DNA of 64,000 nucleotides from Bacteroidales bacterium (GTDB taxonomy: Bacteria > Bacteroidota > Bacteroidia > Bacteroidales > JBDKHP01): contig CBDDLB010000006.1 in NCBI GenBank assembly GCA_965230435.1, positions 1,928,270 to 1,992,269 on the forward strand, read 5' to 3'. The translations under genes were made by a program, and so were the position numbers. Of the stretch, positions 3,172 through 56,741 are shown piece by piece; the stretch's first letter is position 1; the number at the start of each line of letters is the position of its first letter. The notes below the pieces were generated by a model. The model saw nothing but the letters and a program-made list of their open reading frames with translations. It was not told the origin of the DNA and made no database searches.

Positions 3172-3408
3172 CGAATTTAGTTTGTTGTATTGTGTTAGTC
3201 ATTAATTCATTGTTATCTAAAGCATCCCTCGCACTTTCTAACATCCGTAATATTCCTTAGAGACCCAAGTTTTTGCATCTCTGCCGATATCATGAATATC
3301 ATATAGTGCAACACCTATCAGCTATTGACCAATGACTAACGTTATGTAAATCAAAAGCGGAAGTCCGAACCAGCCAGACTTCCGCAACAAGAAAAAATTA
3401 TTAGAATC

Positions 3409-21258: not shown

Positions 21259-21325
21259 ACCTTAGTTTTACGTATTGGTTATAGTTAAAAACCAGCGTAT
21301 AGCCAATTTAAAACGAATAATTTTC

Positions 21326-21364
21326 AAAGTGCCAAAGGAGTACCTAAATGTACCCTGGCACTTT
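21326..21364 (+). terminator. intrinsic-terminator-like hairpin after rsgA
   Basis: AAAGTGCCAAAGGAGTAC-ctaaat-GTACCCTGGCACTTT followed by a T-rich tail, 68 nt after the rsgA stop. Confidence 0.6.
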
Positions 21365-21700
21365 GTATTCGTTTCTAAGAATCGCACTTTAAACATACAA
21401 CATTGCAAAAACACAACATTCTAATAATCAGAATATTTACCAAAAAGCAGAAATAAAAAGAATATACTACACTAATTTTATCTCATTTTTCTATAACAAA
21501 CTGTTTGTCAATACGTATCCTGTACCTATTACGAAGGAAGAAGAATACAAGGTTGAATATTTTTTGCAAGATTTAAGGCTACGGGCCTATTTAATGATCA
21601 AATAATCTATCAGAATATGAGCTATTTGTATTCTGAAAAGGTTAGATTAAATATGTCCACCTATCCGCTTACATTGCACTTTTTCGACAAACGAAGGAAC

Positions 21701-24700
21701 ATGAGGGAATTAATTGCTGCTGCTTTTTCTATTTGGTGTGTTATTTTTTTGGTTTTTGATGTGCATTCTCAGGATAATAATTACGTCACATCTCAATATA
21801 CGATTACTGACGGATTGCCCCATAACCGTGTAAGTTCGTTGGCTTTCGACAAACAAGGCTTCTTATGGCTTTCCACCTCTAACGGACTTTTCCGTTTCGA
21901 CAGTTATAAGTTTGAGGAGCAGGCTCAAACGGGAAAAGGAACAAAAATCATCAACAGCCCACTTATTGAATCGCTCCTGATCGATACCAAAGGAAACATC
22001 TGGGCTGGTTATTATGTGGGCGGAATCTTAAAATACGACCCCAAAACACAATCTACCGTAGATTATTTGCCAAACGACAACGACTCTAACACCATTTGTG
22101 GAGGAAGAATAAAAACCATCTGCGAAGACAAAAACGGAAACATCTGGATCGGCTCGGGATCTGGCGGTGTCTCGAAGCTCGATTTGAAAACCCAAAAGTT
22201 CAGTCACTATTTAGGGGCAAGACCTAATAAGGGATGGCAAGGTGGGAGTATTAACGAAATTATCTGTTTATCAGATTCCTCTATTTGGGCTGCTGGTATT
22301 GGCGGTTTATTTAAGCATGATAAACATACCGATTCGTTCAAAAAAATAAAACCGCCCAAAAAGTCGACAATAAAAGCCAACGAATTTGCATGTGTAGCCG
22401 AAGATACTTTACGGAACTGCCTGTGGATTGGAGCATGGAGCGATTCCTTGGCAAGGCTAGACCTACATACAGAAGAAATAACTTACAGAAGAAGCAAAGC
22501 CAACGCTACCCCAAGCATTTTGCTAGACAAACAAGGTACTCTATGGCTCGGGTCGTGGGGCCGGGGGATTTATAGGTATTATATTGATGAGAATAAATTT
22601 GAAAAGCACACTTTTGAAGGCGACAAAAAAAAGCAGAACAGTGTAAAAGTAATATTAGATTTGTTAGAACATTCATCGGGCGAAATATGGGTATCCTCGT
22701 ACAGCTCAGGAATGCTATCTATTACAAAAAGCAAAGCATTTAAAAAGGTTAAACTGCCTAAGGGAAGACGGGAAGTACACCCCCAAAGCTTCAGATATCA
22801 CAACAACAATCTTTTCATTTCAACAAATATAAATCTACTGCAACAAACAAGTTCTGGTGAATTCAGAACAATTCTGTGCAAAAAAACATTTAAAGTACTC
22901 TTGCCAGACTCCAACCAGCTATGGGCAACAGCAAATAGATTTGTTGGAAGACTTCAAGAAGGAGAAGACGGAGAATATACTTTGAACCAGATAAGGCTTT
23001 TCGAAGGTAGTAGATTTGTCGATACAAGAAAGGTAAGTGGCGCAGTTTTCAAAGACAGCCTCCTGTACATCTCTTCCATTAATTACCCTATGACAATCTT
23101 CAGGGTGAACAAAGACGGAAAATACAAGTTCATTAAAAGGCTTTGCCCCAAAAACGGTGTCGAAGGCCACCTGCCAACAGTAAGAGTAAACTGTATGCTC
23201 AAAGATTCAAAAGAAAACATCTGGGTCGGCACTATTGGTGGACTTTTTCAAATCAGGGATACCACGCAAATGATACCAGTGCATAAGTTCATTTCGGGAG
23301 GCGAACATTTAAGCAGTGATCTGATATCTGAAATAAAAGAGGACAACAGAGGGCGATTGCTCATCTGCACCAGCAGAGGACTGAACGTCTTAACGCCTAT
23401 AGGTGACGAGGACTATAAATTAACCAAATACAACACTTCTAATGGTCTGCCAGAAAACAATGTTAGATCTTGTTCCGTGGACGTTAACGGAATGATTTGG
23501 CTCAGTACCAATACGAATATTGTGCGCATTAATCCTGAAAATCAGAATGTTTTTGCTTTTGGTAGAAAAGACGGAATAAATGTTTCCAGCTTTACAGGTG
23601 CATCTACTATTGCGCCAGATGGAAAAATGATATTCGGAGCAGAAGGATGTTATATTGAATTCGATCCTACGAAAGTACAGGTACAAAGCAAAGCTCCAAC
23701 TCTGAAGATTTCTGGACTGAGTATTTTAAACAACCCCATAAAAGCAGGAGAAGAATTCCATGATAGAGTAATTCTAAAAAATGCAATCGACTACACAGAA
23801 GAACTAGAGATTACACATAAAGAAAAAGAGTTTTCTATTGAGCTAAGCCTCTTGGAATACCAAAAAGAGAAGAAAAACTTCTACGAATATAAGCTTGTTG
23901 GCTTTGATGAAGACTGGGTGCAGCTCGGAAGACAACGCACAATTTCTTTCACAAATCTTCCTCCCGGAGAGTATCAACTTCAGGCCAGAGCGATTACAAG
24001 CGAGGGCATTTATGTAGAATTATCCAAACCGCTATCCATTATAGTAACACCACCTTGGTGGAAAACAATATGGTTCCGCACAGCCTTCATCCTATTGATA
24101 ATTGCATCTGCTATTGGATATTACAGATACCGAATGCATGCGATAAAAGAGAAAAACAAGGAACTAGAGCATCAGGTTCAGTTACGGACTCAAGAAATCA
24201 GAAAGCAATCGGGAGAAATTGCCGCCCAGCGCGATCATCTTGCAAAAGCAAACTCTATGCTGCAAGAACATCAGGAAGAGATAATTTCGCAACGTGATGT
24301 GCTTTCCGAACAGAAAGACAAACTTGAAGATGCAAATTTCTTACTGAAAGAGCGCCAAGAAGAAATATTGACTCAGAATGAGGAAATAAAGCAACAGACC
24401 GAAGAAATTGCAAGTCAGCGCGATTATGTCCAAAAACAGAACGCTGAAATCGCCGAGGGGTTGATGAGCTTAGAGCTATTGAGCGATTTCGGTCAGAAAC
24501 TTACATCCACTTTACGCTTAGAAGACATTTTAGAAATGGTACACGATTACGTATCGTCTATTTTAAAAACAGATGCATTTGGGGTGGGATTATACCGCGA
24601 TACCAAACAACGGATCGACTACCATGCTTTTTACGAAAACGGTGTTGCACAGCCCTTATTCACAAAAGCTCATGCCCCAGAAACGAGTTTCTCATCATGG

Positions 24701-25750
24701 GCCATCCAGAATAAAAAAGAAATATTCGAAAACAATATCGAACAGAATTATAAATTATACTTCAAGGAGAAACCTTCTTTAAGTACAAATTTCAATGCGA
24801 AATCGCTACTCGTTTTTCCTTTATTTTCAGGAGATAAGGTCATTGGAGTATTATCGATATATAGTCAGGCAGAAAATTCGTATGCGCAAAAAAATTTCTC
24901 ATTCGTAAAAAACCTATCGGCCTATATTTCAATTGCCGTAACCAATGCCCGTCTATACGGCGAAATGAATCGGAAAAACGAAAACATCCAGAGCAGTATC
25001 GCATATGCCCGCAACATTCAAAAGGCAATACTTCCGCTCAAACGGCAAATGGATACTCTCGTGGAAACATTCACACTCTTTTTGCCTAAAGATGTGGTTT
25101 CTGGCGATTTCTATTGGCACTCAGACATTTCCTCTGCCGAAACGAACGAAGCACTGTTCGCAGTTGTCGACTGTACAGGCCACGGAGTTCCCGGCGCCTT
25201 TATGTCTCTGATAGGCAATCGCATATTAAACCGAATCGTAAACGAAAGGAAGGTTCACGAACCCGCACTTATACTAACCGAACTGCACCGTTTCATCGTT
25301 GAAGCATTGAAACAGGACAGCACAGATAACAACGACGGGATGGATGTTGCACTATGCAAAATCACCAAGACTGAAAGTGGGGCAACTATTGCTTACGCAG
25401 GAGCAAAACGCAACCTGATAATTATTGAACCTTCTGGCAACACCAACATTGTAAAAGGTACCAGAAAATCTATTGGCGGGACAAAGGCTCAAAGAAACAA
25501 AACGAACTTTGCGTCCGAAACTTTCAATGCTCCTAAAGGTACAACTCTCTACTTGAGTTCAGATGGCTACACAGACCAAAACAACATCAGCAACAAAAAA
25601 TTTGGCTCTACAGCTCTTTTAGACCTTCTGCGTCAAATTTATCAAGAAGACATAGAAAAACAGTCGCAAATTCTAAAAGAAACCCTACAACAACACATGG
25701 GCAAATATGAACAGCGAGATGATATTACGATTATGGGTATTAAAATCTGA
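21701..25750 (+). CDS. periplasmic beta-propeller/YYY sensor - TM - coiled coil - GAF - PP2C (SpoIIE-family) phosphatase, paralog 1
   Basis: Start set at ATG 21701 (MRELIAAAFSIW...), by analogy with paralog 2. Domains: Reg_prop-like repeats (GLPHNRVSSLAFDKQGFLWLST), YYY (FYEYKLVGFDEDWVQLGRQRTISFTNLPPGEYQLQARA), TM (IWFRTAFILLIIASAIGYY). PP2C motifs: GDFYWH, VDCTGHGVPGAFMS, DGMDVAL, SDGYTDQ, RDDITIMGIKI. Confidence 0.85.
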   Translation: MRELIAAAFSIWCVIFLVFDVHSQDNNYVTSQYTITDGLPHNRVSSLAFDKQGFLWLSTSNGLFRFDSYKFEEQAQTGKGTKIINSPLIESLLIDTKGNIWAGYYVGGILKYDPKTQSTVDYLPNDNDSNTICGGRIKTICEDKNGNIWIGSGSGGVSKLDLKTQKFSHYLGARPNKGWQGGSINEIICLSDSSIWAAGIGGLFKHDKHTDSFKKIKPPKKSTIKANEFACVAEDTLRNCLWIGAWSDSLARLDLHTEEITYRRSKANATPSILLDKQGTLWLGSWGRGIYRYYIDENKFEKHTFEGDKKKQNSVKVILDLLEHSSGEIWVSSYSSGMLSITKSKAFKKVKLPKGRREVHPQSFRYHNNNLFISTNINLLQQTSSGEFRTILCKKTFKVLLPDSNQLWATANRFVGRLQEGEDGEYTLNQIRLFEGSRFVDTRKVSGAVFKDSLLYISSINYPMTIFRVNKDGKYKFIKRLCPKNGVEGHLPTVRVNCMLKDSKENIWVGTIGGLFQIRDTTQMIPVHKFISGGEHLSSDLISEIKEDNRGRLLICTSRGLNVLTPIGDEDYKLTKYNTSNGLPENNVRSCSVDVNGMIWLSTNTNIVRINPENQNVFAFGRKDGINVSSFTGASTIAPDGKMIFGAEGCYIEFDPTKVQVQSKAPTLKISGLSILNNPIKAGEEFHDRVILKNAIDYTEELEITHKEKEFSIELSLLEYQKEKKNFYEYKLVGFDEDWVQLGRQRTISFTNLPPGEYQLQARAITSEGIYVELSKPLSIIVTPPWWKTIWFRTAFILLIIASAIGYYRYRMHAIKEKNKELEHQVQLRTQEIRKQSGEIAAQRDHLAKANSMLQEHQEEIISQRDVLSEQKDKLEDANFLLKERQEEILTQNEEIKQQTEEIASQRDYVQKQNAEIAEGLMSLELLSDFGQKLTSTLRLEDILEMVHDYVSSILKTDAFGVGLYRDTKQRIDYHAFYENGVAQPLFTKAHAPETSFSSWAIQNKKEIFENNIEQNYKLYFKEKPSLSTNFNAKSLLVFPLFSGDKVIGVLSIYSQAENSYAQKNFSFVKNLSAYISIAVTNARLYGEMNRKNENIQSSIAYARNIQKAILPLKRQMDTLVETFTLFLPKDVVSGDFYWHSDISSAETNEALFAVVDCTGHGVPGAFMSLIGNRILNRIVNERKVHEPALILTELHRFIVEALKQDSTDNNDGMDVALCKITKTESGATIAYAGAKRNLIIIEPSGNTNIVKGTRKSIGGTKAQRNKTNFASETFNAPKGTTLYLSSDGYTDQNNISNKKFGSTALLDLLRQIYQEDIEKQSQILKETLQQHMGKYEQRDDITIMGIKI

Positions 25751-25882
25751 TGTTTCTCAAAAGAAATTATCAATTAACTTACGCCTGAAAACCAACACGT
25801 AGTCAACTTAAGGTGAGCAATTATTAATTAGAGTGTAAAACATATTGCTCATATTTTCAACTCTATAAACCTACTTTTTGAT

Positions 25883-26098
25883 CAAACAGTCACAAAGGGC
25901 TACATGCACATTCGCAAACAAGGCCGCGCTGTTATAAGTGCAGTAGAAGAAGAAGAAATTGATGCTAGATGTATAACAATCACCTAAAATTTGTGTACGA
26001 ACAATTCCATTACAAATCATCGTCCCAGAAAAAGAAAAAGAGTTTTCAAAAATTATTAAGAACTCTAAAAAAGAAAAGTGTTAACCTTAATTTTACGG
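25883..26098 (+). pseudogene. remnant of rsgA 3' end (duplication scar)
   Basis: Aligns by eye to rsgA 21035..21270 (for example CACATTCGCAAACAAGGCCGCGCTGTTATAAGTGCAGTAGAAGAAGAAGAAATTGATGC against CACATTCACGAACAAGGCTGTGCAGTTATAAAAGCTGTGGAAGAGGGTGAAATTGATGC). A 1-nt loss after GATGC leads to a premature stop. Confidence 0.8.
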
Positions 26099-26389
26099 AG
26101 AAAAAGTAAAAAAGTGCCAAAGGCATGTGTAATAATCTTTGGTTCTTCAATACCACCTACATAATTATTCTCTCACACATAGATGTCATTAAAAGTCAAC
26201 CAACTCATCTACAACACAATAATCACTATCCAATACTTAAATAAATACATCACATCAATTTTATCTATTTTTTCTATAACAAACTGTTCACCAACTACGT
26301 ATCCTGTAGAATATCGAAGAGAGATAAAAATGCTAGTTTACAACTGATTTGTAAAATTGACTATTACACTTTCTAACAAATGAAAGGAT

Positions 26390-29300
26390 ATGAGGGGATT
26401 AATTGTTTTGATATTTTTAATTTGGAGTACTTTTTTTGTGTTTTTTGATACATATTCTCAAAATGACAATTATGTTACTTCTCAGTATACGATTACTGAC
26501 GGATTACCTCACAACCGTGTTAGTTCTCTAGCTTTCGATAAACAAGGTTTTCTGTGGCTTGCAACAGCCAATGGACTTTTCCGGTTCGATAGTTACAAGT
26601 TCGAAGAATACGCAAAAACAAAAACCAATGCAACAGCTATTAACAGCCCATACCTAGAATCCCTTCTTGTTGACTCAAAAGGGAATATCTGGGCAGGTTA
26701 TTACGTAGGTGGCCTTATAAAGTACAATACAACAGACCAGTCTATAGTATCTTATTCTCCAAGCGATAACGATTCAAGTTCAATTTGCAACACCCGCATA
26801 AAAACCATTTGCGAAGACAAACTCGGCAACATTTGGGTTGGTTCCGGTGGTAGTGGAATTGCAAAACTCGACGAAAAGACTGGCAAATTCAAACATTATC
26901 TTAGAAAAAAAACAAAAGATAATGACTGGACCGGCACTAGCGTTAACCAGCTTATCTGCACAAAAGATTCTACTATCTGGGCCGCATGTATTGGGGGGCT
27001 GTATAAGTATAATAAATCTAAAGATTCGTTCGAGAGAATAAAATCTCAAAAGAAATCTAATCACAAACAAAATGAGTTTGCGTGTTTAGTAGAAGATACT
27101 TTACGGAACTGTCTCTGGCTTGGCACTTGGAGCAGTTCGTTGGGAAAGCTAGATTTACAGACAGATGAATTGACCTTTAGAAAGAACAAAGCCACTTCTA
27201 CTGCCAGTATTCTAATAGACTCACAGGGCACCATATGGCTAGGCTCATGGGGAAAAGGACTTTATAGATATTATGCCGATTCTAATAAGTTCGAAAGGCA
27301 CACCTTCGAAGGCGATTCAACCAAAATAAAGAGTATAAAAGTAATACGAAAAATTACAGAACATTCATCGGGAGAGATATGGCTAAGCACACATAGCACA
27401 GGTATTCTGACTATTACTAAAAGTAAAGCATTCAAGAAAATAAAACACCCAAAATCGAAACGCACAACATACACTCAGGACTTAAGGTATATTGACAATA
27501 AGCTATTCATGGCAACAAATATTGGCCTGCATCAAAGAACAGATTCAGGTACATTCAAAGCGATTTCGAAAAGAAGAGTAATTACCCAGAAAATACTCAA
27601 GACAGATTCCAACCAGATTTGGATAACCAACAACCAGTACATAGAAAGACTTCAACAGACAGAAAATGGATACACACTGAAATACTTAAAGCTTTTCAAG
27701 AAAGGCAAATATAATGACACAAGAAAAGTAAGTGGTATAATCTTCAAAGACAGCCTTGCATATATTTCTACGATCCACTACCCGATGACAATCTTTAAAC
27801 TTGGCAAAGGAGGAAACTACTGGTTCAAGAAAAGGCTCAATCCTAAAATCGGAGCTGTAGGTCACCTTCCAACAGCTAGAGTAAATAACATGTTCAAAGA
27901 TTCGAAAGGGAAAATCTGGATCGGAAGTTTTGGTGGACTTTATCAAGTAAAAGGCGAAGATGAAATGTTGCCTGTAAAACAGTTCATATCCAAAGGTAAA
28001 CGCCTAAGCGGGGACCTGATTACAGAAATAGAGGAAGACAGCAAAGGACGCTTACTTGTAAGCACCACCAAAGGGCTAAACATCCTAACACCTACAGACA
28101 AAGACAATTACAATCTTACTATCTACGACACCTCCAATGGACTTCCTGAAAATTACATTAGGTCGTGTGCCGTGGACGTTAACGGGACTGTTTGGGTTAG
28201 CACAAATACAAACATCGTACGCATCGATCTGGAAAAACAAGATGTTTTTGCTTTTGGCAGAAAAGACGGAATAAACGTTCCCATCTTTACACGATCTTCT
28301 ACTGTTTCCCCAGATGGGAAAATCATATTCGGAGCCCGTGGTTGCTATGTTGAATTCGACCCTAAGAAAGTTGAGACGATCAGAAAAAAGCCTAAGCTTG
28401 AACTGTCCAGCCTAAGCATACTGAACAACCCTATAAAAGCAGGAGAAGAGTTCAACGACAGAGTAATTCTGAAAAAAGCTATTAGTTATACTAAAAAGCT
28501 AAAAATCACCTATAAGGAAAAAGAATTCTCAATAGAATTAAGCCTTCTGGAATACCAAAAAGAGAAGAAGAATTTTTATGAATATAAGCTGGTTGGCTTC
28601 GATAACGACTGGGTGCAATTAGGAAGACAACGTACGGTTTCATTTACAAACCTCCCAGCGGGTAAATACCAACTGCAAGCCAGAGCCATTACTAGCGAAG
28701 GTGTTTACGTGAATCTACCCAGCCCGCTTACGATTATTGTAACTCCGCCTTGGTGGAAAACACTTTGGTTCCGTATTACTTTCATCCTATTAATAATCGT
28801 AGGCGCTATTGGCTTCTTCAGGTACCGAATACATGCAATAAAAGAAAAAAACAGGGAACTAGAGCATCAGGTTCTTTTGCGCACACAGGAAATCAGACAA
28901 CAATCTGAAGAGATCGTTGCCCAACGCGATCACCTTGCCATGCAAAAAGAAAAGCTTGAAAAAGCAAACACACTATTGCAAGAGCATCAAGAAGAAATTA
29001 CAACTCAAAGAGATCGACTCTCTGAACAGAAAAACGAACTGGAACATACCAACAACAAACTAAACGTTCAGAATTCAGAAATAAAACAACAGTCTGAAGA
29101 AATCGCTACTCAGCGCGATGAACTCTCTAGGCAAAAAGAGAAATTGGAAAGTACAAACTACTTGCTTAAAGAACGCCAAGAAGAAATATTGGCTCAGAAT
29201 GAGGAGATAAGACAACAGACAGAGGAAATTTCGGCGCAGCGCGATTATGTACAGAAACAAAACAAAGAAATAGAAGAAGGTTTGATGAACATGGAACTAC

Positions 29301-30571
29301 TAAGCGATTTTGGTCAAAAACTAACTTCCATGCTCAGCCTAGACGACATTATGGAAATGGTATACAGCTATGTTTCGTCTATTGTTAAAACCGACGCTTT
29401 TGGAATTGGGCTTTACCGCGACCAGCAAAAACGTATCGACTACCATGCCTTCTATGAAGCTGAAAAAGCACTGGATCCATTTTCTAAGGAATATTGCCCT
29501 GAGCGTAATTTTTCGTCTTGGGCCATTGCTAATAAGAAAGAAGTCTTTGAGAACTCTATCAGCAGAAACTTCAAATTATACTTCAAGGAAGAACCTTCGC
29601 TCTGCACAAACATAAACGCAAAATCCGTACTTATTTTTCTGCTATATTCAGATGAAAAGGTAATTGGAGTCCTATCTGTTTACAACAATAAAGAGGAAGC
29701 CTTTGCTGCAAAAGATTTCTCATTCCTGAAAAACCTTTCAACCTACATTGCAATTGCAGTAGCCAATGCCCGCTTGTACGGCGAGGTAAACAGAAAAAAC
29801 GATCATATACGAAGCAGTATTTCCTATGCCCAAAACATCCAAAAGACTATACTACCTCTAAAAAAACATATGGATGATTTCGTAAAAACCTTCACCCTCT
29901 TCTTACCCAAAGATGTTGTTTCTGGAGATTTCTACTGGCACTCGGACATATCAACCCCAGACAAAAAAGAAGCTCTGTTTGCCGTTATAGATTGTACAGG
30001 ACATGGTGTTCCTGGAGCGTTCATGTCGTTAATCGGGAATCGCATCCTAAACCGCATTGTCAACGAAAGAAAAGTTTACGACCCGGCGCATATACTCACT
30101 GCCTTACACAGCTTTATTGTTGAAGCACTGAAACAGGAAAGTTCCGACAACAACGACGGAATGGATGTTGCCCTTTGTAAAATCACATACCAAAAGCATA
30201 ATGCAACAGTCCAATATGCAGGCGCAAAACGCAACCTTTATATTCTTGAACCTTCTGGAACAACAAAGACAATCAATGGTACCAGAAAATCAATTGGTGG
30301 AGCAAAGGCAAAAAGAAGCAAGGCCGAATTTACCTCTCATACAATCAACGTAGATAAAGAGACAACTCTATACTTAACTTCCGATGGGTATGCAGACCAA
30401 AACGGCGTCAATCAAAAACGGTTTGGATCCAATAAACTTGTCGAACTCCTTTCTGAAATACACAAGGACGACATGCAAAAACAAATGCGAATTCTTAAAC
30501 AAAGGCTGTTCGAACACATGGAGGGCTTTGACCAACGTGACGACATAACCATTATGGGCATTAAAATCTAA
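26390..30571 (+). CDS. beta-propeller/YYY sensor - TM - coiled coil - GAF - PP2C phosphatase, paralog 2
   Basis: 1393 aa, collinear with paralog 1 and carrying the same motif set. It has the longest coiled-coil segment of the three. Confidence 0.85.
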   Translation: MRGLIVLIFLIWSTFFVFFDTYSQNDNYVTSQYTITDGLPHNRVSSLAFDKQGFLWLATANGLFRFDSYKFEEYAKTKTNATAINSPYLESLLVDSKGNIWAGYYVGGLIKYNTTDQSIVSYSPSDNDSSSICNTRIKTICEDKLGNIWVGSGGSGIAKLDEKTGKFKHYLRKKTKDNDWTGTSVNQLICTKDSTIWAACIGGLYKYNKSKDSFERIKSQKKSNHKQNEFACLVEDTLRNCLWLGTWSSSLGKLDLQTDELTFRKNKATSTASILIDSQGTIWLGSWGKGLYRYYADSNKFERHTFEGDSTKIKSIKVIRKITEHSSGEIWLSTHSTGILTITKSKAFKKIKHPKSKRTTYTQDLRYIDNKLFMATNIGLHQRTDSGTFKAISKRRVITQKILKTDSNQIWITNNQYIERLQQTENGYTLKYLKLFKKGKYNDTRKVSGIIFKDSLAYISTIHYPMTIFKLGKGGNYWFKKRLNPKIGAVGHLPTARVNNMFKDSKGKIWIGSFGGLYQVKGEDEMLPVKQFISKGKRLSGDLITEIEEDSKGRLLVSTTKGLNILTPTDKDNYNLTIYDTSNGLPENYIRSCAVDVNGTVWVSTNTNIVRIDLEKQDVFAFGRKDGINVPIFTRSSTVSPDGKIIFGARGCYVEFDPKKVETIRKKPKLELSSLSILNNPIKAGEEFNDRVILKKAISYTKKLKITYKEKEFSIELSLLEYQKEKKNFYEYKLVGFDNDWVQLGRQRTVSFTNLPAGKYQLQARAITSEGVYVNLPSPLTIIVTPPWWKTLWFRITFILLIIVGAIGFFRYRIHAIKEKNRELEHQVLLRTQEIRQQSEEIVAQRDHLAMQKEKLEKANTLLQEHQEEITTQRDRLSEQKNELEHTNNKLNVQNSEIKQQSEEIATQRDELSRQKEKLESTNYLLKERQEEILAQNEEIRQQTEEISAQRDYVQKQNKEIEEGLMNMELLSDFGQKLTSMLSLDDIMEMVYSYVSSIVKTDAFGIGLYRDQQKRIDYHAFYEAEKALDPFSKEYCPERNFSSWAIANKKEVFENSISRNFKLYFKEEPSLCTNINAKSVLIFLLYSDEKVIGVLSVYNNKEEAFAAKDFSFLKNLSTYIAIAVANARLYGEVNRKNDHIRSSISYAQNIQKTILPLKKHMDDFVKTFTLFLPKDVVSGDFYWHSDISTPDKKEALFAVIDCTGHGVPGAFMSLIGNRILNRIVNERKVYDPAHILTALHSFIVEALKQESSDNNDGMDVALCKITYQKHNATVQYAGAKRNLYILEPSGTTKTINGTRKSIGGAKAKRSKAEFTSHTINVDKETTLYLTSDGYADQNGVNQKRFGSNKLVELLSEIHKDDMQKQMRILKQRLFEHMEGFDQRDDITIMGIKI

Positions 30572-31091
30572 CAAATTTCTAAAACCCTATTGGATAATAT
30601 TTCAAGAAGTGTATTTCAATTCAACCAACATAAACTATCTACAAAAAATGACGGTAGAGTTCTAAAACACTTTACTTAGTACTTACTCTCTTTATAAGCC
30701 AAGAGATACATAAAAGTTGTACTAAAAAATAAATCGTTCAATCAGTTATCTATAACCATATAAGAAAACATCATACAACAAAGATGCTCAAAAAACAACC
30801 TGTAAATCGACGCTTAGAAATGACTCCACCTATCAAAATAACATATTTCCCCTTTAAGCCAACTCACAGCTCGGGTTCTTCTTTAAATGAGGTGTGCGCC
30901 TGCGATTCAAACCTTGTTTTTTTACGCCCTTTCCGAAAAAAAATACCATTATCATATGACAACAAACAGAATCCACCTCCATTCCAAAGCAATTAAATTC
31001 AACCTATAAAAACATCAAACAAGACAAAAAATATTATATTGCACATTATTTGCAACTCTACGCTGAAACCCCTGTTGGATAAACGATCGAT

Positions 31092-34000
31092 ATGAAGAAA
31101 CTGAACGCTTTATATATTTGTTGTTTTGTTCTTATTGCCCTCAATACCTTTGCCCAGAACAATAATTATGTCACCTCGCGATACACGATCGCAGACGGTC
31201 TGCCGCATAACCGTGTCAGCTCATTAAAATTCGACCAACAAGGATTCTTATGGCTTGCTACTTCAAACGGACTTTTTAGGTTCGACAGCTATAAATTTAA
31301 AGAATATGCCCAGGTAAAAGCAGACACCTCATTTATAAACAGTCCATATCTAGAATCGTTGCTGGTTGATTCCAAGGGAAACATTTGGTCCGGATATTAC
31401 ATTGGTGGAATCATAAAATACAACCCCAAAGACCAATCTGTAGTATCCTATCTTCCAGACGATAAAGACTCCACCGCCATTTGCGGCAATAGAATTAGGA
31501 GCATCTGCGAAGATAAAGAAGGAAATATATGGGTAGGCTCTGGCGCAAACGGAATAGCAAAGCTTGATATAAAAACACAAACGTTCAAACATTACTTACG
31601 CAGAAAAACCAAATCTGGAGTATGGGTTGGACAAGACATAGGTGGTATTATCTGCACTCGGGACTCCAACATCTGGGCTGCAGGCATTGGAGGGCTATAT
31701 AAATACAACAAAAAGAAAGACCTATTCAAGAGAATTGGAGTTACAAAAAAAAGAAAAGGTGAAACTTTTGCCACCATAGCCGAAGACACTGTACGCAACT
31801 GCATATGGCTCGGTGGCTGGTTTAAGATGCTTGCCAGAATTGACCTAAAAACAGGCAAAGGAAAATGGAAAAGAACCCCGTTAGGACCAATAGTTGAAAT
31901 CCATCCCGACTCAAAAGGAGTATTATGGCTTGGAACTTGGGGCAATGGCATTCTCAGGTATGATGTAGATGCCAAGAAGTTCGAATCGCACACCTTTGAA
32001 GGAGACTCCACCGCATTTGCCAATGTAAAAACAATACGCAGTATTACAGAAGATACTTCTGGGGAAATATGGGTCAGCACACACTACTCTGGCATTCTTA
32101 GCATTTCGCAAAGCAAAGCATTCAAAAAACACGACCTACCTAGCTATGCAAAATCTCAGTTATACACACGCGATCTGGCCTATCTCGACAATAAACTATT
32201 CATAGCAACTCAAAAAGGATTACTGATAAAGCCAGACTCAGGCCAGTTCGAACACATAAAACGTAGAAGTTCAAAATACGACAATCTGGAACGAATATTA
32301 CGAGTAAACGACGATAAGCTATGGGTCACCAATCACGAATTCATAGATTCCCTTTATCTTAAAGACGGGAAGTATAAACTTAAAAAAATATGGTTGTTCA
32401 AAAAAGGAGCCTTTACAGACACACGTAAAGTAAGTGGAATGTTGCGTGACGGAGATTTAATCTACATCTCAACTATTCACTACCCAATAACAATATACAA
32501 ATACAACAAAAAAGGGAACCATAAATTCATAAAAAGGTTCAATCCTCAGAATAAAATAGAAGGTAGCGTATCCACCTCCAAAACAAACGATCTATTTAAA
32601 GATTCGAAAGGAAAAATCTGGATCGGCACTGTTGGCGGTCTTTATCAAATAAAGAATAAAGACAAAATGATTCCAGCACATCGGCTCATAAAAAATGGCA
32701 AGAAACTAGGCAGCGATCTTATTCTGGAAATAAAAGAAGATAACAAAGGCCGAATCTTAGTCTGCACAGGAAAAGGCTTAAACGTATTAACACCTTCTGA
32801 CAACGGGATGTATTCCCTTTCTGTTTACGATGACTCAAAGGGATTGCCCGAAAACAACGTAAGGTCGTGCGCTGTCGATCATGATGGAATCGTTTGGATC
32901 AGCACCAATACCAACATCGTCCGGATTAATCTTGATAGTGAAGAGGTTTCAGCTTTCGGCAGAAAAGACGGTATAAATGTGGAAGAGTTCACGAGATCTT
33001 CTATCGTTAAACCAGATGGGAAAATCATATTCGGAGGCAAAGGCTGTTACCTTGAATTCGATCCTTCGGAGGTGAAAATGTTAAAAAAAACGCCTAGGCT
33101 TGAACTGTCCGGTTTCAGCATTCTGAATAATCCTATAAAAGCTGGTGAAGAATTCAACAACAGGGTAATTCTAGAAAAAGCAATCAATTTTACAAAAAAG
33201 CTGAAAATAACTTATAAAGAAAAAGAATTCACAATTGAGCTGAGCTTGCTGGAATATCAGAAAAACAAAAACAATTTCTACGAATACAAACTTGTTGGTT
33301 TCGATCACGATTGGGTCCAACTGGGCAGGCAACGCTCCATATCTTTCACCAACCTTCCCGCAGGAAAATATGAGCTACAAGCCAGAGCCATCACCAGCGA
33401 AGGATATAAAATAAATCTGCCAACACCGTTAAAAATAACCGTCACCCCTCCTTGGTGGAAAACTGCCTGGTTCCGTATTTCTCTGATTATCTTCATCATT
33501 ACGACCTCGGTTTCTTTCTACCAGTATAGAATGAATGCCATTAAAGCACAAAACAGAAAACTGGAAGAACAAGTACAACAACGTACACAGGAGATCAAAC
33601 AGCAATCTGAAGAAATTAAAACCCAACGCGACAACCTTGTTGAGCAAAAATCCAAACTTGAAGATGCGAACCAACTTCTGAAAGACCGGCAGGAAGAAAT
33701 TCTGATGCGAAATGAAGAAATCCAACAACAGGCAGAGGAAATAACAGCCCAACGGGATTATGTTAAGAAGCAAAACCTTGAGATCGAAGAAGGTTTGAAG
33801 AACATGGAGCTATTAAGTGAGTTTGGTCAAAAACTCACAGCCACCCTTAGCCTCACTGTAATTTTACGCATGGTACATAATTATGTGGCCTCTATCGTAA
33901 AAACCGACGCTTTCGGGGTTGGCCTCTATCGGGACAAAAAGAAGCGGATAGATTATCATGCTTTCTACGAAGACGGGAAAGCCATAGATTTATTTTCAAA

Positions 34001-35087
34001 TGCACACGATCCACAAAAGAGTTTCTCGTCGTGGGCTATTGAAAACAAAAAAGAAATTTTCGAAAACAGTGTATTGAAGAACTTTCGGTTATACTTCAAC
34101 GAAGTACCGTCGCTTAATACTAGTTTCGAAGCAAAATCAGTTTTAGTATTTCCTTTATTTTCAGAAGAAAAAGTAATCGGGGTTTTCTCTGTTTATAGCC
34201 GCGAAGAAGATTCTTATTTGCAAAAAGACTTTGCATTCGTAAAAAGTTTGTCTGCATACATTTCTATTGCAGTGGCCAACGCCCGTTTGTATGGCGAAAT
34301 GAACCGCAAAAATGAGAACATTCAAAGTAGTATTGCTTATGCCAGAAATATTCAGAAAGCAATACTTCCACTAAAACAACATATGGACACATTTGTCCAA
34401 ACCTTTACCCTTTACATGCCGAAAGCTGTAGTATCCGGAGATTTCTACTGGCACACAGACATATCTGAGGGAGATAAAAAAGAGGCCTTCTTTGCTGTTA
34501 TAGACTGTACAGGACATGGTGTTCCCGGGGCTTTCATGTCCCTGATCGGAAACAGGATTCTGAACCGCATTGTTAACGAAAGAGGTGTCCACGAACCAGC
34601 GTCAATATTAACAGAACTAGATAAATTCATTATTGATGCTCTCAAACAACGAACAACCGAAAACAACGACGGTATGGACGTTGCCCTCTGCAAAGTCACA
34701 CAATCTGAGGAAGGGGCAACAGTGGTATATGCTGGAGCTAAACGAAACCTGATCCTTATTGATTCAAAAGGCGAAATAAACATAGCTAAAGGAACACGAA
34801 AATCTATCGGTGGAGCTAAATCCAGAAGAAACAATAAACATTTCACTTCCGAGACCATCGAACTAACCAAGGGAACCACTCTCTACTTAACTTCAGATGG
34901 CTATGCTGATCAGAACGGAGTTAACGAAAGCAAATTCGGTTCAGCCATGCTCTTGGACTATCTATCTAAAATTTATACAGAAGACATGGAAAAACAAGCC
35001 CACTTGCTGGAAAAAACCCTTCTTGAACACATGGGCGGCTTCGAACAACGCGACGACATTACCATCATGGGAGTCAAGATACTATAG
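31092..35087 (+). CDS. beta-propeller/YYY sensor - TM - coiled coil - GAF - PP2C phosphatase, paralog 3
   Basis: 1331 aa with a signal peptide ending TFAQ and the same domain order. It has the shortest coiled coil of the three. Confidence 0.85.
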   Translation: MKKLNALYICCFVLIALNTFAQNNNYVTSRYTIADGLPHNRVSSLKFDQQGFLWLATSNGLFRFDSYKFKEYAQVKADTSFINSPYLESLLVDSKGNIWSGYYIGGIIKYNPKDQSVVSYLPDDKDSTAICGNRIRSICEDKEGNIWVGSGANGIAKLDIKTQTFKHYLRRKTKSGVWVGQDIGGIICTRDSNIWAAGIGGLYKYNKKKDLFKRIGVTKKRKGETFATIAEDTVRNCIWLGGWFKMLARIDLKTGKGKWKRTPLGPIVEIHPDSKGVLWLGTWGNGILRYDVDAKKFESHTFEGDSTAFANVKTIRSITEDTSGEIWVSTHYSGILSISQSKAFKKHDLPSYAKSQLYTRDLAYLDNKLFIATQKGLLIKPDSGQFEHIKRRSSKYDNLERILRVNDDKLWVTNHEFIDSLYLKDGKYKLKKIWLFKKGAFTDTRKVSGMLRDGDLIYISTIHYPITIYKYNKKGNHKFIKRFNPQNKIEGSVSTSKTNDLFKDSKGKIWIGTVGGLYQIKNKDKMIPAHRLIKNGKKLGSDLILEIKEDNKGRILVCTGKGLNVLTPSDNGMYSLSVYDDSKGLPENNVRSCAVDHDGIVWISTNTNIVRINLDSEEVSAFGRKDGINVEEFTRSSIVKPDGKIIFGGKGCYLEFDPSEVKMLKKTPRLELSGFSILNNPIKAGEEFNNRVILEKAINFTKKLKITYKEKEFTIELSLLEYQKNKNNFYEYKLVGFDHDWVQLGRQRSISFTNLPAGKYELQARAITSEGYKINLPTPLKITVTPPWWKTAWFRISLIIFIITTSVSFYQYRMNAIKAQNRKLEEQVQQRTQEIKQQSEEIKTQRDNLVEQKSKLEDANQLLKDRQEEILMRNEEIQQQAEEITAQRDYVKKQNLEIEEGLKNMELLSEFGQKLTATLSLTVILRMVHNYVASIVKTDAFGVGLYRDKKKRIDYHAFYEDGKAIDLFSNAHDPQKSFSSWAIENKKEIFENSVLKNFRLYFNEVPSLNTSFEAKSVLVFPLFSEEKVIGVFSVYSREEDSYLQKDFAFVKSLSAYISIAVANARLYGEMNRKNENIQSSIAYARNIQKAILPLKQHMDTFVQTFTLYMPKAVVSGDFYWHTDISEGDKKEAFFAVIDCTGHGVPGAFMSLIGNRILNRIVNERGVHEPASILTELDKFIIDALKQRTTENNDGMDVALCKVTQSEEGATVVYAGAKRNLILIDSKGEINIAKGTRKSIGGAKSRRNNKHFTSETIELTKGTTLYLTSDGYADQNGVNESKFGSAMLLDYLSKIYTEDMEKQAHLLEKTLLEHMGGFEQRDDITIMGVKIL

Positions 35088-36724: not shown

Positions 36725-39286
36725 TTAGTCTTGACTTGGCTCTTCTGGCTGACTTTCTTCTGTAGCTGGGGCAATTGCCTCAGTTCCTTCTACAGCTTCA
36801 GTTCCTTCTAGGTTTTCATCTTCAAATCCATTTTCTTCATCTTCCTTCGCACCATCTTTCACACGGGCAACAGATGCGATAGAATCTTTTTCCTGAAGGT
36901 TGATCAAACGAACACCTTGCGCGGTTCTACCGAGCAAACGCAGTTCATTGGTTGCTAGGCGGATTGTAAGACCAGACTTGTTAATGATCATCAAGTGGTC
37001 GTCGTCAGTAACACCTTTTATTGCGATAAGCTTACCTGTCTTATCGTTGATGTTCATCGCTTTCACACCTTTACCACCACGGCTTGTACGGCGGTATTCG
37101 TCCTGTTTCGAACGTTTTCCGTATCCGTTCTCAGAAACCACAAGCACGTCGTACTCTTCGGCACGTAAGCAGACCATACCAACAACTTTGTCTCCCTCTT
37201 CTACCATCATACCGCGCACACCAGACGCTGTACGTCCCATTGGACGCACCTGCTCTTCGTTGAAACGGACTGCTTTTCCTGAGTTAGCTCCGATAATGAT
37301 ATCGCTGTTGCCATTTGTAAGTTTTGCCTCAAGAAGAATATCCCCTTCTCGGACGTTGATGGCATTGATACCATTCTGACGGGGACGTGAGTATGCTTCA
37401 AGTGTTGTTTTCTTGATAACACCATTACGTGTGATCATTACAATGTAATGATTCTTCAAGTAATCGTCGTCCTTAAGTGTTTTTACGTTGATGAACGCTT
37501 TCACTTTATCGTCCGGATCGATCTGTAATAGGTTTTGGATCGCGCGCCCTTTCGACGTTTTATTTCCTTCCGGCACTTCGTATACTTTCAGCCAGTAGCA
37601 TTTTCCCTTCTCTGTGAACAGCAAAATAGTGTTGTGCATGTCGGCTACGAACAAATAGCGCAAGAAATCCTCATCGCGCGCATCGCCACCTTTTGCTCCA
37701 CGGCCACCGCGCGACTGAGTACGGTATTCTGTAAGCACTGTACGCTTGATGTAGCCCATGTTCGAAATAGTAACAGCTACCTTTTCGTTGGCATAGAAGT
37801 CCTCTGGGTTGAACTCTTCCGATGCATAAACAATTTCTGTCTTACGCTCATCTGCATACTTGTTCTGAATCTCAAGAAGTTCCTCTTTAATGATATCCAT
37901 TCGCATGCTTTCGTTTGCTAGAATATCTTTTAGGTGGGCAATCATCTTCATCAGTTCATCGTATTCCTCTTTCAGTTTGTCTACCTCCATGTTGGTAAGT
38001 GCCTGGAGGCGCATGTCGAGGATTGCTTTTGCCTGAATCTCACTAAGACCGAAACGCTCCATCAGACCTTCCCTAGCAATATCAGGTGTTTTCGATGACT
38101 TGATGAGTTCAATAACCTCATCGATATTTTGAAGAGCAATAAGTTTACCCTCTAAGATGTGGGCATCTTTCTCTGCTTTTGCCAGTTCGAATTTCGTACG
38201 GCGTATCACTACTTCGTGACGGTGTTCTACGAAATGGTGAACAAGCTCTTTAAGGTTAAGAAGTTTTGGTCGGCCATTAACAAGGGCAATGTTATTTACG
38301 CTGAACGAAGTCTGAAGGGCGGTCATTTTGAAAAGCTTGTTCAAAACAACACTTGCCATTTCGTCGCGCTTAATGTCGAATACAATACGCATCCCTGTAC
38401 GGTCAGATTCGTCGTTCGCGTTTGTAATCCCCTCAAGTTTTTTTTCGTTAACAAGGTCTGCAACTTTAGCAATCAGTTCGGCCTTATTCACCATGTAAGG
38501 AATCTCTGTCACTACAATTTTTTCCCGACCATTTGGCTCTGTCTCAATCTCAGCTTTTGCACGGATAACAACACGTCCTCTGCCCGTTTCATAAGCATCC
38601 TTCACTCCCTCATAGCCATAAATGATACCTCCCGTTGGGAAATCCGGAGCCTTTACGTACTCCAACAGTTCTTCGATTTCGATATCGCGGTTGTCGATGT
38701 ACGCAACAGTTGCGTTGATAACCTCTCCTAAATTGTGGGGTGGCATGTTGGTTGCCATACCAACAGCAATACCCGAAGCCCCATTCACCAAAAGGTTCGG
38801 AACGCGTGTTGGCAATACGGTTGGTTCTTCTAGAGTGTCGTCGAAGTTAAGTTGAAAATCAACAGTATCTTTATCAATATCGCGAAGGGTTTCTTCCGCT
38901 ATTTTTTTAAGGCGAGCCTCGGTATAACGCATTGCCGCAGGGCTATCGCCATCCACAGAACCAAAGTTTCCCTGTCCATCGACAAGTCGGTAGCGCAACG
39001 ACCAATCCTGAGCCATACGCACCATTGCAAAATAAACCGATGAGTCACCATGTGGGTGATACTTACCTAATACCTCACCAACAATTCTGGCAGACTTCTT
39101 ATAAGGCCTATTGGAATAGACACCAAGTTCAGCCATTCCAAATAATACTCTTCTGTGTACTGGCTTTAGGCCATCGCGTACATCAGGAAGAGCACGTGAA
39201 ACAATTACCGACATCGAATAATCGATGTAGGCCGATTTCATTTCCTCTTCAATGCTAATAGGAATAATCTGTTGATTATCACTCAT
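36725..39286 (-). CDS. gyrA: DNA gyrase subunit A
   Basis: 853 aa with N-terminal GyrA motifs ([21 protein letters not shown]), the active-site Tyr context [10 protein letters not shown], and a C-terminal beta-pinwheel with an acidic tail. Confidence 0.97.
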
Positions 39287-50302: not shown

Positions 50303-50313
50303 AAAAGATTGGA

Positions 50314-50598
50314 TTATTCGTTCACCACTTGTACACCTTTCCAAAAGGCTACGTAATTTTTTATTTTTTCTGCCATTGCTTTGGGTTCTGGGTAATACCA
50401 GGCTCCGTCCTGATTGATTTCCCCATTTACATCGAGGGTGTAATAAGACGCAGTGCCCTTCCATGGACAAACCGTGTGAGTGTCGCTGGGTTTGAAGTAC
50501 TCTTTATGAATACTATCGGCAGGGAAATAGTGATTGTTTTCTACAACAAGTGTGTCGTTGCTTTCTGCAACGACTTGGCCATTCCAAATTGCTTTCAT
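50314..50598 (-). CDS. DUF427-domain protein
   Basis: 94 aa from ATG 50598 (MKAIWNGQVVAESNDTLVVENNHYFP...CPWKGTASYY...AFW), a typical DUF427 pattern. It sits between the eanB-like and eanA-like genes with 11-nt and 108-nt gaps. Confidence 0.75.
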   Translation of the reverse strand: MKAIWNGQVVAESNDTLVVENNHYFPADSIHKEYFKPSDTHTVCPWKGTASYYTLDVNGEINQDGAWYYPEPKAMAEKIKNYVAFWKGVQVVNE

Positions 50599-50706
50599 TG
50601 TGTTTTGGTTTGTTTTTTTGGCAAAAAGAACATTAGCACAGGATAGTTTTCTACTGAACACTATCCTGTGCTTGTTCCTATCCTCTGCTAAAACTATTTT
50701 TGGGAA

Positions 50707-56603: not shown

Positions 56604-56741
56604 GACTTTTTGATGGGTTTCTCTTCGGAATAATTACTAGTTATGAACAATGCACATCCTTGAACATTCAGATGTTTTTTGCTGATGCTTCGGGTAAGGT
56701 GTTTGAAATTGTTGGGTGATTTGTTTCTGTTAGTATTATTC

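Follow-up and report, generated by a model that had tools for sequence, protein, structure and literature searches.

Three tandem sensor phosphatase genes

We analyzed a stretch of 64,000 nucleotides from a Bacteroidales bacterium (GenBank assembly GCA_965230435.1, contig CBDDLB010000006.1, positions 1,928,270 to 1,992,269 of the forward strand; hereafter the window), which contains three tandem genes coding for large paralogous proteins of 1331-1393 residues (genes 1-3; Table 1). An initial annotation made from the sequence alone had described these proteins as coupling the periplasmic sensor fold of the hybrid two-component systems (HTCS) to a PP2C phosphatase output. All three share a single domain order, namely a signal peptide, two beta-propellers with a YYY domain, one transmembrane (TM) helix, a coiled coil, a GAF domain and a PP2C domain. 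The Pfam models Reg_prop, Y_Y_Y, GAF_2/GAF_3 and SpoIIE exceed their curated cut-offs in each of the three proteins, and the motifs GDFYW, DCTGHGVPGAFMS, DGMDVAL, SDGY.DQ and RDDITIMG are each found in genes 1, 2 and 3. With E-values of 1e-19 to 1e-31 per domain, and of 3e-66 to the HTCS protein BT4663, the matches are far beyond chance for open reading frames (ORFs) of this length. ORF calls, Pfam and the motif search thus confirm the tandem arrangement, the common domain order and the motifs first reported for these genes, and we consider this observation and its domain-level description near certain. On the basis of sequence comparison and structure modeling, the most fitting description of the proteins is that of membrane-spanning PPM phosphatases of the SiaA type that carry an HTCS-type sensor and into which a GAF domain is inserted.

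The periplasmic sensor

Predicted cleavage of the signal peptide leaves a glutamine at +1 in each protein (HS/QDNNY, YS/QNDNY and FA/QNNNY in genes 1, 2 and 3, with the slash marking the cleavage site), which fits the Bacteroidetes 'Q-rule' as given in PMC5837995. When the region following it in gene 3 was compared to PDB with phmmer, the periplasmic domains of Bacteroides thetaiotaomicron hybrid two-component proteins were recovered, namely BT4663 (4A2L/4A2M, E=3e-66), BT3049 (3V9F, 4e-56) and BT4673 (3OTT, 7e-33), with residues ~22-789 matching along their entire length. An AlphaFold2 model of residues 22-790 of gene 3 attained a mean confidence (pLDDT) of 88.3 and a predicted TM-score (pTM) of 0.82, and a Foldseek search initiated with it recovered the BT4663 chains 4A2M/4A2L as the best matches (TM-score 0.75-0.81, ~795 aligned columns) and BT3049 as well. 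The N-terminal region therefore models as a propeller/YYY fold that matches BT4663 (model TM-score 0.78-0.81), bearing out the HTCS-type fold proposed for it at the outset; as modeled, the periplasmic module is a BT4663-like HTCS-type sensor.

The PP2C domain

The initial annotation had identified the output domain as a SpoIIE/PP2C phosphatase of the kind linked to STAS proteins. The phosphatase fold and an intact site stand; the subtype proved to be closer to SiaA, the biofilm phosphatase encoded by PA0172 in the SiaABCD system of Pseudomonas aeruginosa. The sole NCBIfam match to the PP2C region is SiaA (NF038263, E ~1e-50), covering the C-terminal 255 positions of the model (402-656). Likewise, phmmer searches of PDB recovered the SiaA-PP2C structure (6K4E) with E=8.5e-34, with RssB following at only 0.03 and SpoIIE and RsbX undetected. 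Foldseek placed the modeled domain on 6K4E with E=2e-21 (TMt 0.90, root-mean-square deviation 2.5 A, 33% identity), compared to E=1e-9 to 1e-11 and 13-20% identity for SpoIIE, RssB, RsbX and Rv1364c. As judged from both sequence and model, the PP2C domain is SiaA-type and far from SpoIIE, RsbX and RssB.

To place the active site we used the relation that the chain index of 6K4E plus 362 equals SiaA numbering, verified on C475, D534 and D600. The metal ligands or helpers of SiaA are D474/C475, D534, D600 and D604 (PMC7647112). SiaA D457, D474/C475, D534, D600, D604 and the aspartates of RDDIT correspond to D1117, D1138/C1139, D1196, D1269, D1273 and D1321/D1322 of gene 3. In an alignment of ten PP2C sequences, comprising five paralogs and five relatives, D1117, D1138, D1193/D1196, D1269, D1273 and D1321/D1322 are invariant in all ten, and the metal-site residues are invariant or nearly so across 46 relatives. 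All the metal-site residues of SiaA, including the aspartates on which the assignment as a phosphatase hinged, are thus conserved, and the domain is predicted to be catalytically competent with an intact active site. The contrary reading, that it is a pseudo-phosphatase whose PP2C fold serves as a binding platform like E. coli RssB, draws on the RssB-type folds among the structural matches, and we reject it as highly improbable given that the metal-binding aspartates, DCxGHG and RDDIT are invariant in the ten sequences and nearly so in the 46 relatives, and that the domain is 33% identical to the active SiaA-PP2C.

The transmembrane helix, coiled coil and GAF domain

In all three proteins the YYY domain terminates in PPWW, directly followed by the single TM helix and then by a heptad coiled coil of 95-158 residues. 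The AlphaFold2 model of gene 3 residues 787-1331 (pLDDT 89.2) consists, in the numbering of the modeled fragment, of a continuous helix at 6-131 (~126 residues) that runs from the TM segment into the GAF domain (135-250), a second helix of 48 residues (258-305) and the PP2C domain (309-543). The GAF model is distantly similar to the cAMP-bound GAF domain of Lcd1 (Foldseek, 16% identity).

Counted from PPWW to LSEFGQ, with which the GAF domain starts, the linkers of these proteins and of three further relatives, P0002, P0005 and P0006 (see below), are 80 (P0005), 122 (gene 3 and P0002), 143 (gene 1), 185 (gene 2) and 206 (P0006) residues long, such that all the differences are multiples of 21 residues, or three heptads. 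Autocorrelation of the linker sequences has peaks at multiples of 7 only; in gene 2, 22 of the 35 L/I/V/M residues occupy one heptad position over 158 residues, and in P0006 a 42-residue repeat stands out clearly, identity at lag 42 being 58%. Scanning the DNA with Tandem Repeats Finder revealed no tandem repeats where the linkers are encoded, and the repetition can be seen at the protein level only. The 21-residue steps together with the heptad periodicity suggest that the linker is an uninterrupted coiled coil that has grown and shrunk by register-preserving units. Such steps are expected if signaling needs helical phase, and not length, to be kept.

Table 1. Features of the three sensor phosphatase genes and of the DNA preceding them (window coordinates)
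Feature	Position	Strand	Details and evidence
Region 5' of gene 1	21259..21700	+	conserved blocks common with region 5' of gene 2; TTTGCAA box 21563
Gene 1, sensor phosphatase paralog	21701..25750	+	1349 aa; ORF call, Pfam Reg_prop/Y_Y_Y/GAF_2/SpoIIE
Gene 1 predicted signal peptide	21701-21769	+	boundary analysis
Gene 1 predicted periplasmic sensor (two beta-propellers + YYY)	21770..24061	+	residues 24-787; Pfam; homology to modeled gene 3
Gene 1 predicted TM helix and coiled coil	24068..24478	+	TM helix 24068-24130, heptad coiled coil 24131-24478; PPWW-to-GAF spacing 143 aa
Gene 1 GAF domain	24479..24964	+	Pfam GAF_2 49.1 bits (cut-off 28.6)
Gene 1 linker helix and predicted SiaA-type PP2C	24965..25747	+	NCBIfam SiaA positions 402-656, E=7e-50; Pfam SpoIIE
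Gene 1 PP2C motifs	GDFYW 25103, DCTGHG 25169, DGMDVAL 25334, SDGY 25559, RDDITIMG 25715	+	motif search
Intergenic region 5' of gene 2	25751..26389	+	TTTGTAA box 26348, 42 nt ahead of ATG
Gene 2, sensor phosphatase paralog	26390..30571	+	1393 aa; longest linker of the three; ORF call, Pfam
Gene 2 predicted signal peptide	26390-26458	+	boundary analysis
Gene 2 predicted periplasmic sensor	26459..28756	+	residues 24-789; Pfam; boundary analysis
Gene 2 predicted TM helix and coiled coil	28763..29299	+	TM helix 28763-28825, heptad coiled coil 28826-29299; PPWW-to-GAF spacing 185 aa
Gene 2 GAF domain	29300..29785	+	Pfam GAF_2 45.4 bits
Gene 2 linker helix and predicted SiaA-type PP2C	29786..30568	+	Pfam, NCBIfam; motifs 29924, 29990, 30155, 30380, 30536
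Intergenic region 5' of gene 3	30572..31091	+	TTTGCAA box 31049, 43 nt ahead of ATG
Gene 3, sensor phosphatase paralog	31092..35087	+	1331 aa; the one modeled with AlphaFold2; ORF call, Pfam, phmmer
Gene 3 predicted signal peptide	31092-31154	+	boundary analysis
Gene 3 predicted periplasmic sensor	31155..33458	+	residues 22-789; phmmer, AlphaFold2 model, Foldseek
Gene 3 predicted TM helix and coiled coil	33465..33812	+	TM helix 33465-33527, heptad coiled coil 33528-33812; PPWW-to-GAF spacing 122 aa
Gene 3 GAF domain	33813..34298	+	Pfam GAF_2 45.5 bits; AlphaFold2 model; Foldseek GAF matches 5W10, 3LFV
Gene 3 linker helix and predicted SiaA-type PP2C	34299..35084	+	phmmer/Foldseek 6K4E; motifs 34437, 34503, 34668, 34893, 35049

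Paralogs and spread of the design

A database search identified five paralogs in this genome, all on the same contig: genes 1-3, P0002 (1327 aa) and P0005 (1308 aa), the latter two being 60-69% identical to gene 3. P0006, from a sister genome, is a more distant relative (50%). Among genes 1-3 the propellers are 53-67% identical, the YYY domain 75-84%, the coiled coil 70-80%, the GAF domain 66-72% and the PP2C domain 69-73%. Thus, of the triplication with periplasmic divergence that had been noted earlier, the second element holds, in that the propellers appear to be the most diverged part (53-67% against 66-84%) by a modest difference, whereas the genome holds five paralogs rather than three.

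The combination of domains is also found well outside this genome. Of the best 120 database clusters, 77 contain the propellers, YYY and PP2C (11 of these 77 also with GAF), and the other 43 have different outputs (histidine kinase and receiver domains with or without AraC, GGDEF and others). We further kept 80 loci from species-representative genomes among the matches listed to the motifs [VI]VSGDFYW and DCTGHGVP. The sensor and PP2C are combined in 41 of these loci, which span Cytophagales, Bacteroidales, Flavobacteriales, Sphingobacteriales, Chitinophagales and a few non-Bacteroidota metagenome-assembled genomes (MAGs). The GAF insertion was seen in four of the 80 (Bernardetia, Flammeovirgaceae and two Microscilla loci) and appears to be lineage-restricted. 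Database entries for such proteins bear names such as 'two-component regulator propeller domain-containing protein', 'SpoIIE family protein phosphatase' and 'ligand-binding sensor domain-containing protein/serine phosphatase RsbU', which together with this spread indicates that the design is common and routinely annotated. A full-text literature search of incomplete coverage, which may have missed a study in a subscription journal, found no paper on the propeller/YYY plus SpoIIE/PP2C design. Both parts of the initial statement that it is annotated and functionally uncharacterized therefore hold. Across these proteins the same type of sensor occurs with histidine kinase/receiver/AraC, GGDEF, class III cyclase plus HD, or PP2C outputs; the propeller/YYY/PP2C combination is real, widespread and uncharacterized, and fits current ideas of modular signaling.

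SiaB and SiaC in related loci

The initial annotation had looked to STAS/anti-sigma partner switching for the action of the phosphatase and had left its substrate unassigned. None of these partners was found in the window, as it had stated, and the partners that recur near relatives are of a different kind. Clustering of all the ORFs of the 80 loci revealed two families of ~185 and ~127 residues as the most recurrent neighbors besides PP2C, each present in 10 loci and together in 12 of the 80. The former is a SiaB-family kinase (NF038262, 174 bits against a cut-off of 85; Pfam DUF6272) and the latter is SiaC/DUF1987 (PF09345, 150 bits); they are the only recurrent signaling neighbors in these loci. 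An independent Pfam scan of 148 small ORFs within 3.5 kb of PP2C genes had SiaC (7) and DUF6272 (5) as its top two families. If one assumes ~4,000 genes and one to three SiaC genes per genome, SiaC would be expected within 10 kb of a given gene in ~1% of cases, and on that assumption the observed 15% amounts to a strong enrichment. The PP2C domains abutting SiaB/SiaC in two of the loci rank 7th and 8th of 103 by similarity to the window PP2C (44-45% identity), and the SiaB/SiaC-linked domains are scattered across the whole similarity ranking, which argues that the association is family-wide and not confined to one distant clade.

Certain loci are particularly informative. In a Chitinophaga MAG (L005) a propeller/YYY/PP2C gene is followed by SiaB and SiaC. 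Another locus (L070:3-15194) has six tandem PP2C paralogs, one with propeller/YYY and five apparently with TPRs (as judged from a domain scan of the first of the five), beside a single SiaC/SiaB pair, and sets a precedent for a single switch being fed by many sensors. A third locus (L009:10899-18927), from an uncultured Flavobacteriales MAG, encodes a propeller/YYY sensor with a class III cyclase and HD domain fused to it, and SiaB, a TPR-PP2C gene and SiaC come next; the same sensor type is thus wired to different outputs inside a Sia-like gene cluster. The SiaC-like proteins of these loci retain the phospho-acceptor motif Y-x-N-T-S-S, which contains T68 in P. aeruginosa SiaC. A search for a conserved output gene beside SiaB/SiaC recovered unrelated housekeeping genes only. 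As a separate observation, DUF4154, a YfiR/HmsC-like periplasmic regulator, occurs three times among the small ORFs beside PP2C genes (L009, L069 and L076). Taken together, the SiaA-type PP2C domain and the recurrent SiaB/SiaC partners offer a concrete candidate for the substrate of the phosphatase.

A proposed signaling pathway and its alternatives

We propose that each protein would act as a single-pass TM sensor phosphatase, probably a dimeric one. A periplasmic ligand, possibly an oligosaccharide by analogy with the Bacteroides HTCS sensors, would bind the propellers and change how far apart the two membrane-proximal YYY/TM elements stand, or at what angle, in a scissor-like manner as reported for BT4663 in PMC8534201 (citing Lowe 2012). 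The change would pass via the coiled coil, GAF domain and linker helix, so that the PP2C dimer toggles between low and high activity; control of PPM activation through a coiled-coil linker has been demonstrated for RsbU, and has been suggested to extend to GAF-PP2C and HAMP-PP2C proteins, as part of an 'exchangeable toolkit' (PMC12143880). The active PP2C would then strip phosphate from the conserved threonine of a small SiaC/DUF1987 (STAS-like) switch protein, which a SiaB-family kinase would re-phosphorylate, and the unphosphorylated switch protein would bind and regulate an output protein. This is modeled on P. aeruginosa, where SiaA dephosphorylates SiaC-pT68, SiaB phosphorylates SiaC and unphosphorylated SiaC activates the cyclase SiaD (PMC7647112, PMC8457831). 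The five paralogs, with diverged propellers and linkers differing in 21-residue steps, might constitute several inputs to one switch, and the idea that the three genes of the window feed a single pathway is plausible, with L070 as a precedent.

We judge this chain as a whole, from periplasmic ligand through PP2C control to dephosphorylation of a SiaC-like protein, to be slightly favored by the evidence. That the substrate is a SiaC-type protein has even chances or a little better, whereas for a glycan as the ligand we see the chances as roughly balanced. What the data show are the domain make-up and folds, the intact catalytic residues, the SiaA-like character of the PP2C domain, the coiled coil kept in register and the gene linkage to SiaB/SiaC at the level of the family; the dimeric state, the sign of regulation, the class of ligand, the substrate in the source genome and the output are what we infer.

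Several results weigh against this proposal. The proteins score 170-177 bits with the NCBIfam SiaA model, against an equivalog cut-off of 700, lack the HAMP domain by Pfam and differ from SiaA in operon context. A six-frame search of the window with hidden Markov models recovered neither SiaB nor SiaC, and siaB, siaC and siaD are neither adjacent to genes 1-3 nor present elsewhere within the window. SiaB/SiaC lie within 10 kb in only 12 of the 80 related loci, in only four or five of the 41 propeller/YYY/PP2C loci, and near neither the four GAF-containing relatives L001, L002, L004 and L007 nor P0007 (L081). Neither a diguanylate cyclase nor any other recurrent output gene was found beside SiaB/SiaC in the Bacteroidota loci analyzed. 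With regard to the ligand, the window has no SusC/SusD pair and no SusD match, placing the genes outside a Sus-type polysaccharide utilization locus (PUL), and no glycoside hydrolase neighbor recurs across the 80 loci. A SiaC profile search, which had none from the source contig among the best 120 of 1603 matches, was uninformative either way.

These last points bear on what the sensor reads. Of the name 'glycan sensor' given to these proteins at first, the HTCS-type fold stands and the glycan rests on analogy. The same output could be driven by an envelope or surface signal, such as lipopolysaccharide (LPS), another surface polymer or contact, rather than by glycan fragments. The genes lie between those for OmpA, RsgA, TPR and GyrA proteins, outside any PUL, and no glycoside hydrolase neighbor is recurrent, as would suit such a signal. 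PorZ, a related double-propeller protein, is a partial NCBIfam match (E ~1e-29, below cut-off) and appears in the fold search (5M11); the title of PMC8545088 describes it as delivering anionic LPS. However, no other solved structures come nearly as close as those of the HTCS sensors BT4663 and BT3049, the former called heparin/heparan-sulphate sensing in the title of its structure entry, and two GH16 enzymes, a T9SS cargo protein with a carbohydrate-binding module (CBM) and two GH5-like proteins are encoded 3.6-10 kb upstream. We regard the envelope signal as possible, though on the doubtful side.

As for the substrate, a classical partner switch would have the PP2C dephosphorylate a phosphorylated STAS antagonist, which would then capture an RsbW-type kinase and free a sigma factor. 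SpoIIE-family PP2C proteins with N-terminal sensors, including the GAF domain of Clostridioides difficile RsbZ, commonly work in this way (PMC12143880), and SiaC is itself structurally STAS-like, making the two schemes mechanistically close. Moreover, Sigma70_r2 was detected in two of the 148 small neighboring ORFs. Against this, the PP2C domain is much nearer to SiaA than to SpoIIE, RsbX and Rv1364c, SiaC and SiaB are the top two families near the PP2C genes with STAS not among the 25 families listed for those ORFs, and no STAS, RsbW-like or sigma-factor gene was matched among the ORFs of at least 70 aa scanned in the 64-kb window. We therefore consider a STAS-based switch unlikely.

A third alternative is that the paralogs are largely redundant copies from a recent lineage-specific amplification, with the divergence of the propellers reflecting neutral drift. 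Every domain has diverged to some extent (PP2C 69-73%, GAF 66-72%, propellers 53-67%), the upstream regions of genes 1 and 2 can still be aligned, and the paralogs are closer to one another than any relation seen with P0006 of the sister genome (50%). Yet gene 3 and P0002 are 89% identical in the GAF domain and 82% in the PP2C domain as against 56-59% in the propellers, a clear excess of sensor divergence. Furthermore, the five copies keep full-length ORFs with invariant catalytic residues, and their linkers vary in length while always remaining in register, which suggests maintained function. Redundancy is accordingly a quite improbable account of these genes.

Gene starts and upstream regions

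For gene 1, an in-frame ATG at 21617 would yield a form of 1377 aa, and the database copy (P0004) is annotated from that position. The N-terminus can be aligned with that of gene 2 from the methionine at 21701 (MRELIAAAF against MRGLIVLIF), and reading from there gives a normal signal peptide. Because the paralog alignment and the position of the signal peptide both fit it, 21701 is the more likely start. When the two genes are compared, ~84 nt (window 21617-21700) are seen to be inserted in gene 1 between a TTTG[CT]AA box and the conserved start, and this insertion is the source of the upstream ATG used by the public annotation. The box is common to the upstream regions of all three genes, standing 42-43 nt before the ATG in genes 2 and 3. 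The exact Bacteroidetes -7 motif TAnnTTTG is not present upstream of genes 1, 2 or 3, a terminator scan found no terminator-like site on the + strand between the three genes, and a sigma-70 promoter scan was uninformative, with fewer promoter-like sites than in shuffles. An Rfam search of the window returned no match.

Genomic surroundings

The three genes are flanked by genes for an OmpA-family protein and RsgA upstream, and for a TPR protein, GyrA and UDG downstream. A glycan-degrading cluster lies on the opposite strand 3.6-10 kb upstream and codes for two GH16 proteins, a type IX secretion system (T9SS)/CBM cargo protein and two GH5-like proteins; a GH31 gene is found downstream by family model. 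The GH16/GH30/GH5 neighborhood reported initially is thus upheld by family models for GH16 (two genes, with GH31 in addition), whereas GH30 and GH5 were unconfirmed by Pfam or PDB searches. The GH5-like pair (16010-17035 and 17078-18097, - strand) consists of tandem paralogs of ~340 aa that are 54% identical and matched neither Pfam nor, by sequence, PDB. The two contain GWE[LI]NNEP and VTELG (NEP/TELG), motifs typical of the catalytic residues of clan GH-A/GH5, and may represent a divergent glycoside hydrolase family. The cargo protein (13678-15729, - strand) combines an F5/8 type C (CBM-like) domain with Por_Secre_tail, and its N-terminal ~460 residues matched no family or solved structure searched.

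The lone TonB-dependent receptor of the window (3409-6225) adjoins a phytase. The region at 2005-6225 (- strand) thus has a beta-propeller phytase (E=1e-119) beside a TonB-dependent receptor with a CarboxypepD_reg N-terminal domain, and looks like a phytate or phosphate acquisition pair, not a Sus-type pair. At 49301-52035 (- strand) an EgtD-like histidine methyltransferase (Methyltransf_33, E=4e-103) adjoins a protein with three rhodanese domains, a pairing that we take to resemble EanA/EanB of the anaerobic ergothioneine pathway. A DUF427 ORF (50314-50661) overlaps the TTG-extended start of the methyltransferase, which was for this reason probably called too far upstream.

The block at 52932-59311 (- strand) is richer in GC (44-47%, compared to ~39%). 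It codes for a 1223-aa protein in which 2Fe-2S, GltD-like flavoprotein, Fe-S and molybdopterin-oxidoreductase domains are fused, and for NuoF-like (614 aa) and NuoE-like (173 aa) subunits. Together these resemble a soluble complex of the formate dehydrogenase type linked to NAD(P). The antisense ORF of 576 aa at 56979-58709 is probably spurious. Two transposase matches were obtained, a weak one to an IS200-like Y1 type (E=0.003) at 52232-52882 and one to the IS1595 family at 60641-61558. The window ends in 4 kb of AT-rich DNA (59940-64000; 31-36% GC), and this may be a mobile-element border.

GyrA (36725-39286) is 70-73% identical to its counterparts in Prolixibacter, Labilibaculum, Marinifilum and Ancylomarina, which places the organism close to the Marinilabiliales, in a part of the Bacteroidia that is poorly sampled. 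Unlike GyrA, the GAF-type sensor phosphatases have their closest non-self relatives in the Cytophagales (Bernardetia, Microscilla and Flammeovirgaceae; 27-31%), a mismatch that could stem from sparse sampling or horizontal transfer.

Comparison with known signaling systems

The window proteins share with the HTCS proteins BT4663 and BT3049 the two Reg_prop propellers and YYY domain with a TM helix directly after, at a sensor sequence identity of only ~22%. Unlike them, they are without HisKA, HATPase_c (E<=0.01), Response_reg and HTH_AraC, have instead a coiled coil, GAF and PP2C, and are not encoded beside SusC/SusD. Of the solved structures, that of SiaA is nearest to the PP2C domain of the window proteins, which also conserve the helical extension ahead of the SiaA PP2C and its metal-site residues; Bacteroidota members of the family adjoin SiaB-family kinases and SiaC. 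In contrast, SiaA has two TM segments and HAMP, and lacks the propeller/YYY and GAF domains. PorZ is alike in its tandem Reg_prop-type propellers. However, it is secreted to the surface, carries a T9SS C-terminal domain and is without TM or cytoplasmic domains, and the structural match is poor (TM-score 0.32, Foldseek rank 21).

RsbU, RsbP and RsbZ similarly connect a sensor to a PPM phosphatase through a coiled coil or crossing helices, with RsbZ having a GAF domain ahead of PP2C as in the window proteins (PMC12143880). Under the 'exchangeable toolkit' view, a given sensor should be able to drive a kinase, a cyclase or a phosphatase, and this is seen for the propeller/YYY sensor. These three are cytoplasmic and act on STAS proteins controlling sigma factors, whereas the window proteins are predicted to be transmembrane with a periplasmic sensor, and their PP2C domain is only 13-20% identical to the solved partner-switch-related ones (SpoIIE, RsbX, Rv1364c). 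The RsbU-like transmembrane phosphatase of Chlamydia likewise couples a periplasmic ligand-binding domain to the cytoplasmic PP2C of a partner-switching pathway; it differs in having another sensor fold and STAS-type partners, and is not known to contain a GAF domain.

Implications for signaling in Bacteroidota

HTCS sensors are the best-understood means of complex-carbohydrate recognition in Bacteroidota. To our knowledge, all the characterized examples end in a kinase/AraC transcription output, and the SiaB/SiaC (DUF6272/DUF1987) switch has been studied in Pseudomonas only; in the literature searched, which was incomplete, DUF1987 appeared for P. aeruginosa alone, and 'SiaC' in papers on Bacteroidota denoted an unrelated Capnocytophaga sialidase. 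It is conceivable, though we advance this tentatively and as more doubtful than not, that HTCS-type sensors coupled to SiaA-type phosphatases might form a third, non-transcription-factor route to sensing extracellular glycans in Bacteroidota, beside HTCS, SusR and ECF-sigma/anti-sigma systems. Several sensors (five in this genome) would converge on one SiaB/SiaC-like threonine phosphorylation switch with an output other than a diguanylate cyclase, and the 21-residue steps of the linker could serve as a tuning element.

The HTCS-type sensor is very often wired to what is predicted to be a SiaA-type phosphatase (77 of the best 120 clusters; 41 of the 80 loci), and the linkage to SiaB/SiaC points to a large unexplored layer of post-translational signaling in Bacteroidota. 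The register-preserving 21-residue linker steps of the paralogs additionally constitute a natural series relating coiled-coil length to transmembrane signaling. These results do not overturn current concepts, and instead extend the 'exchangeable toolkit' view of bacterial signaling proteins.

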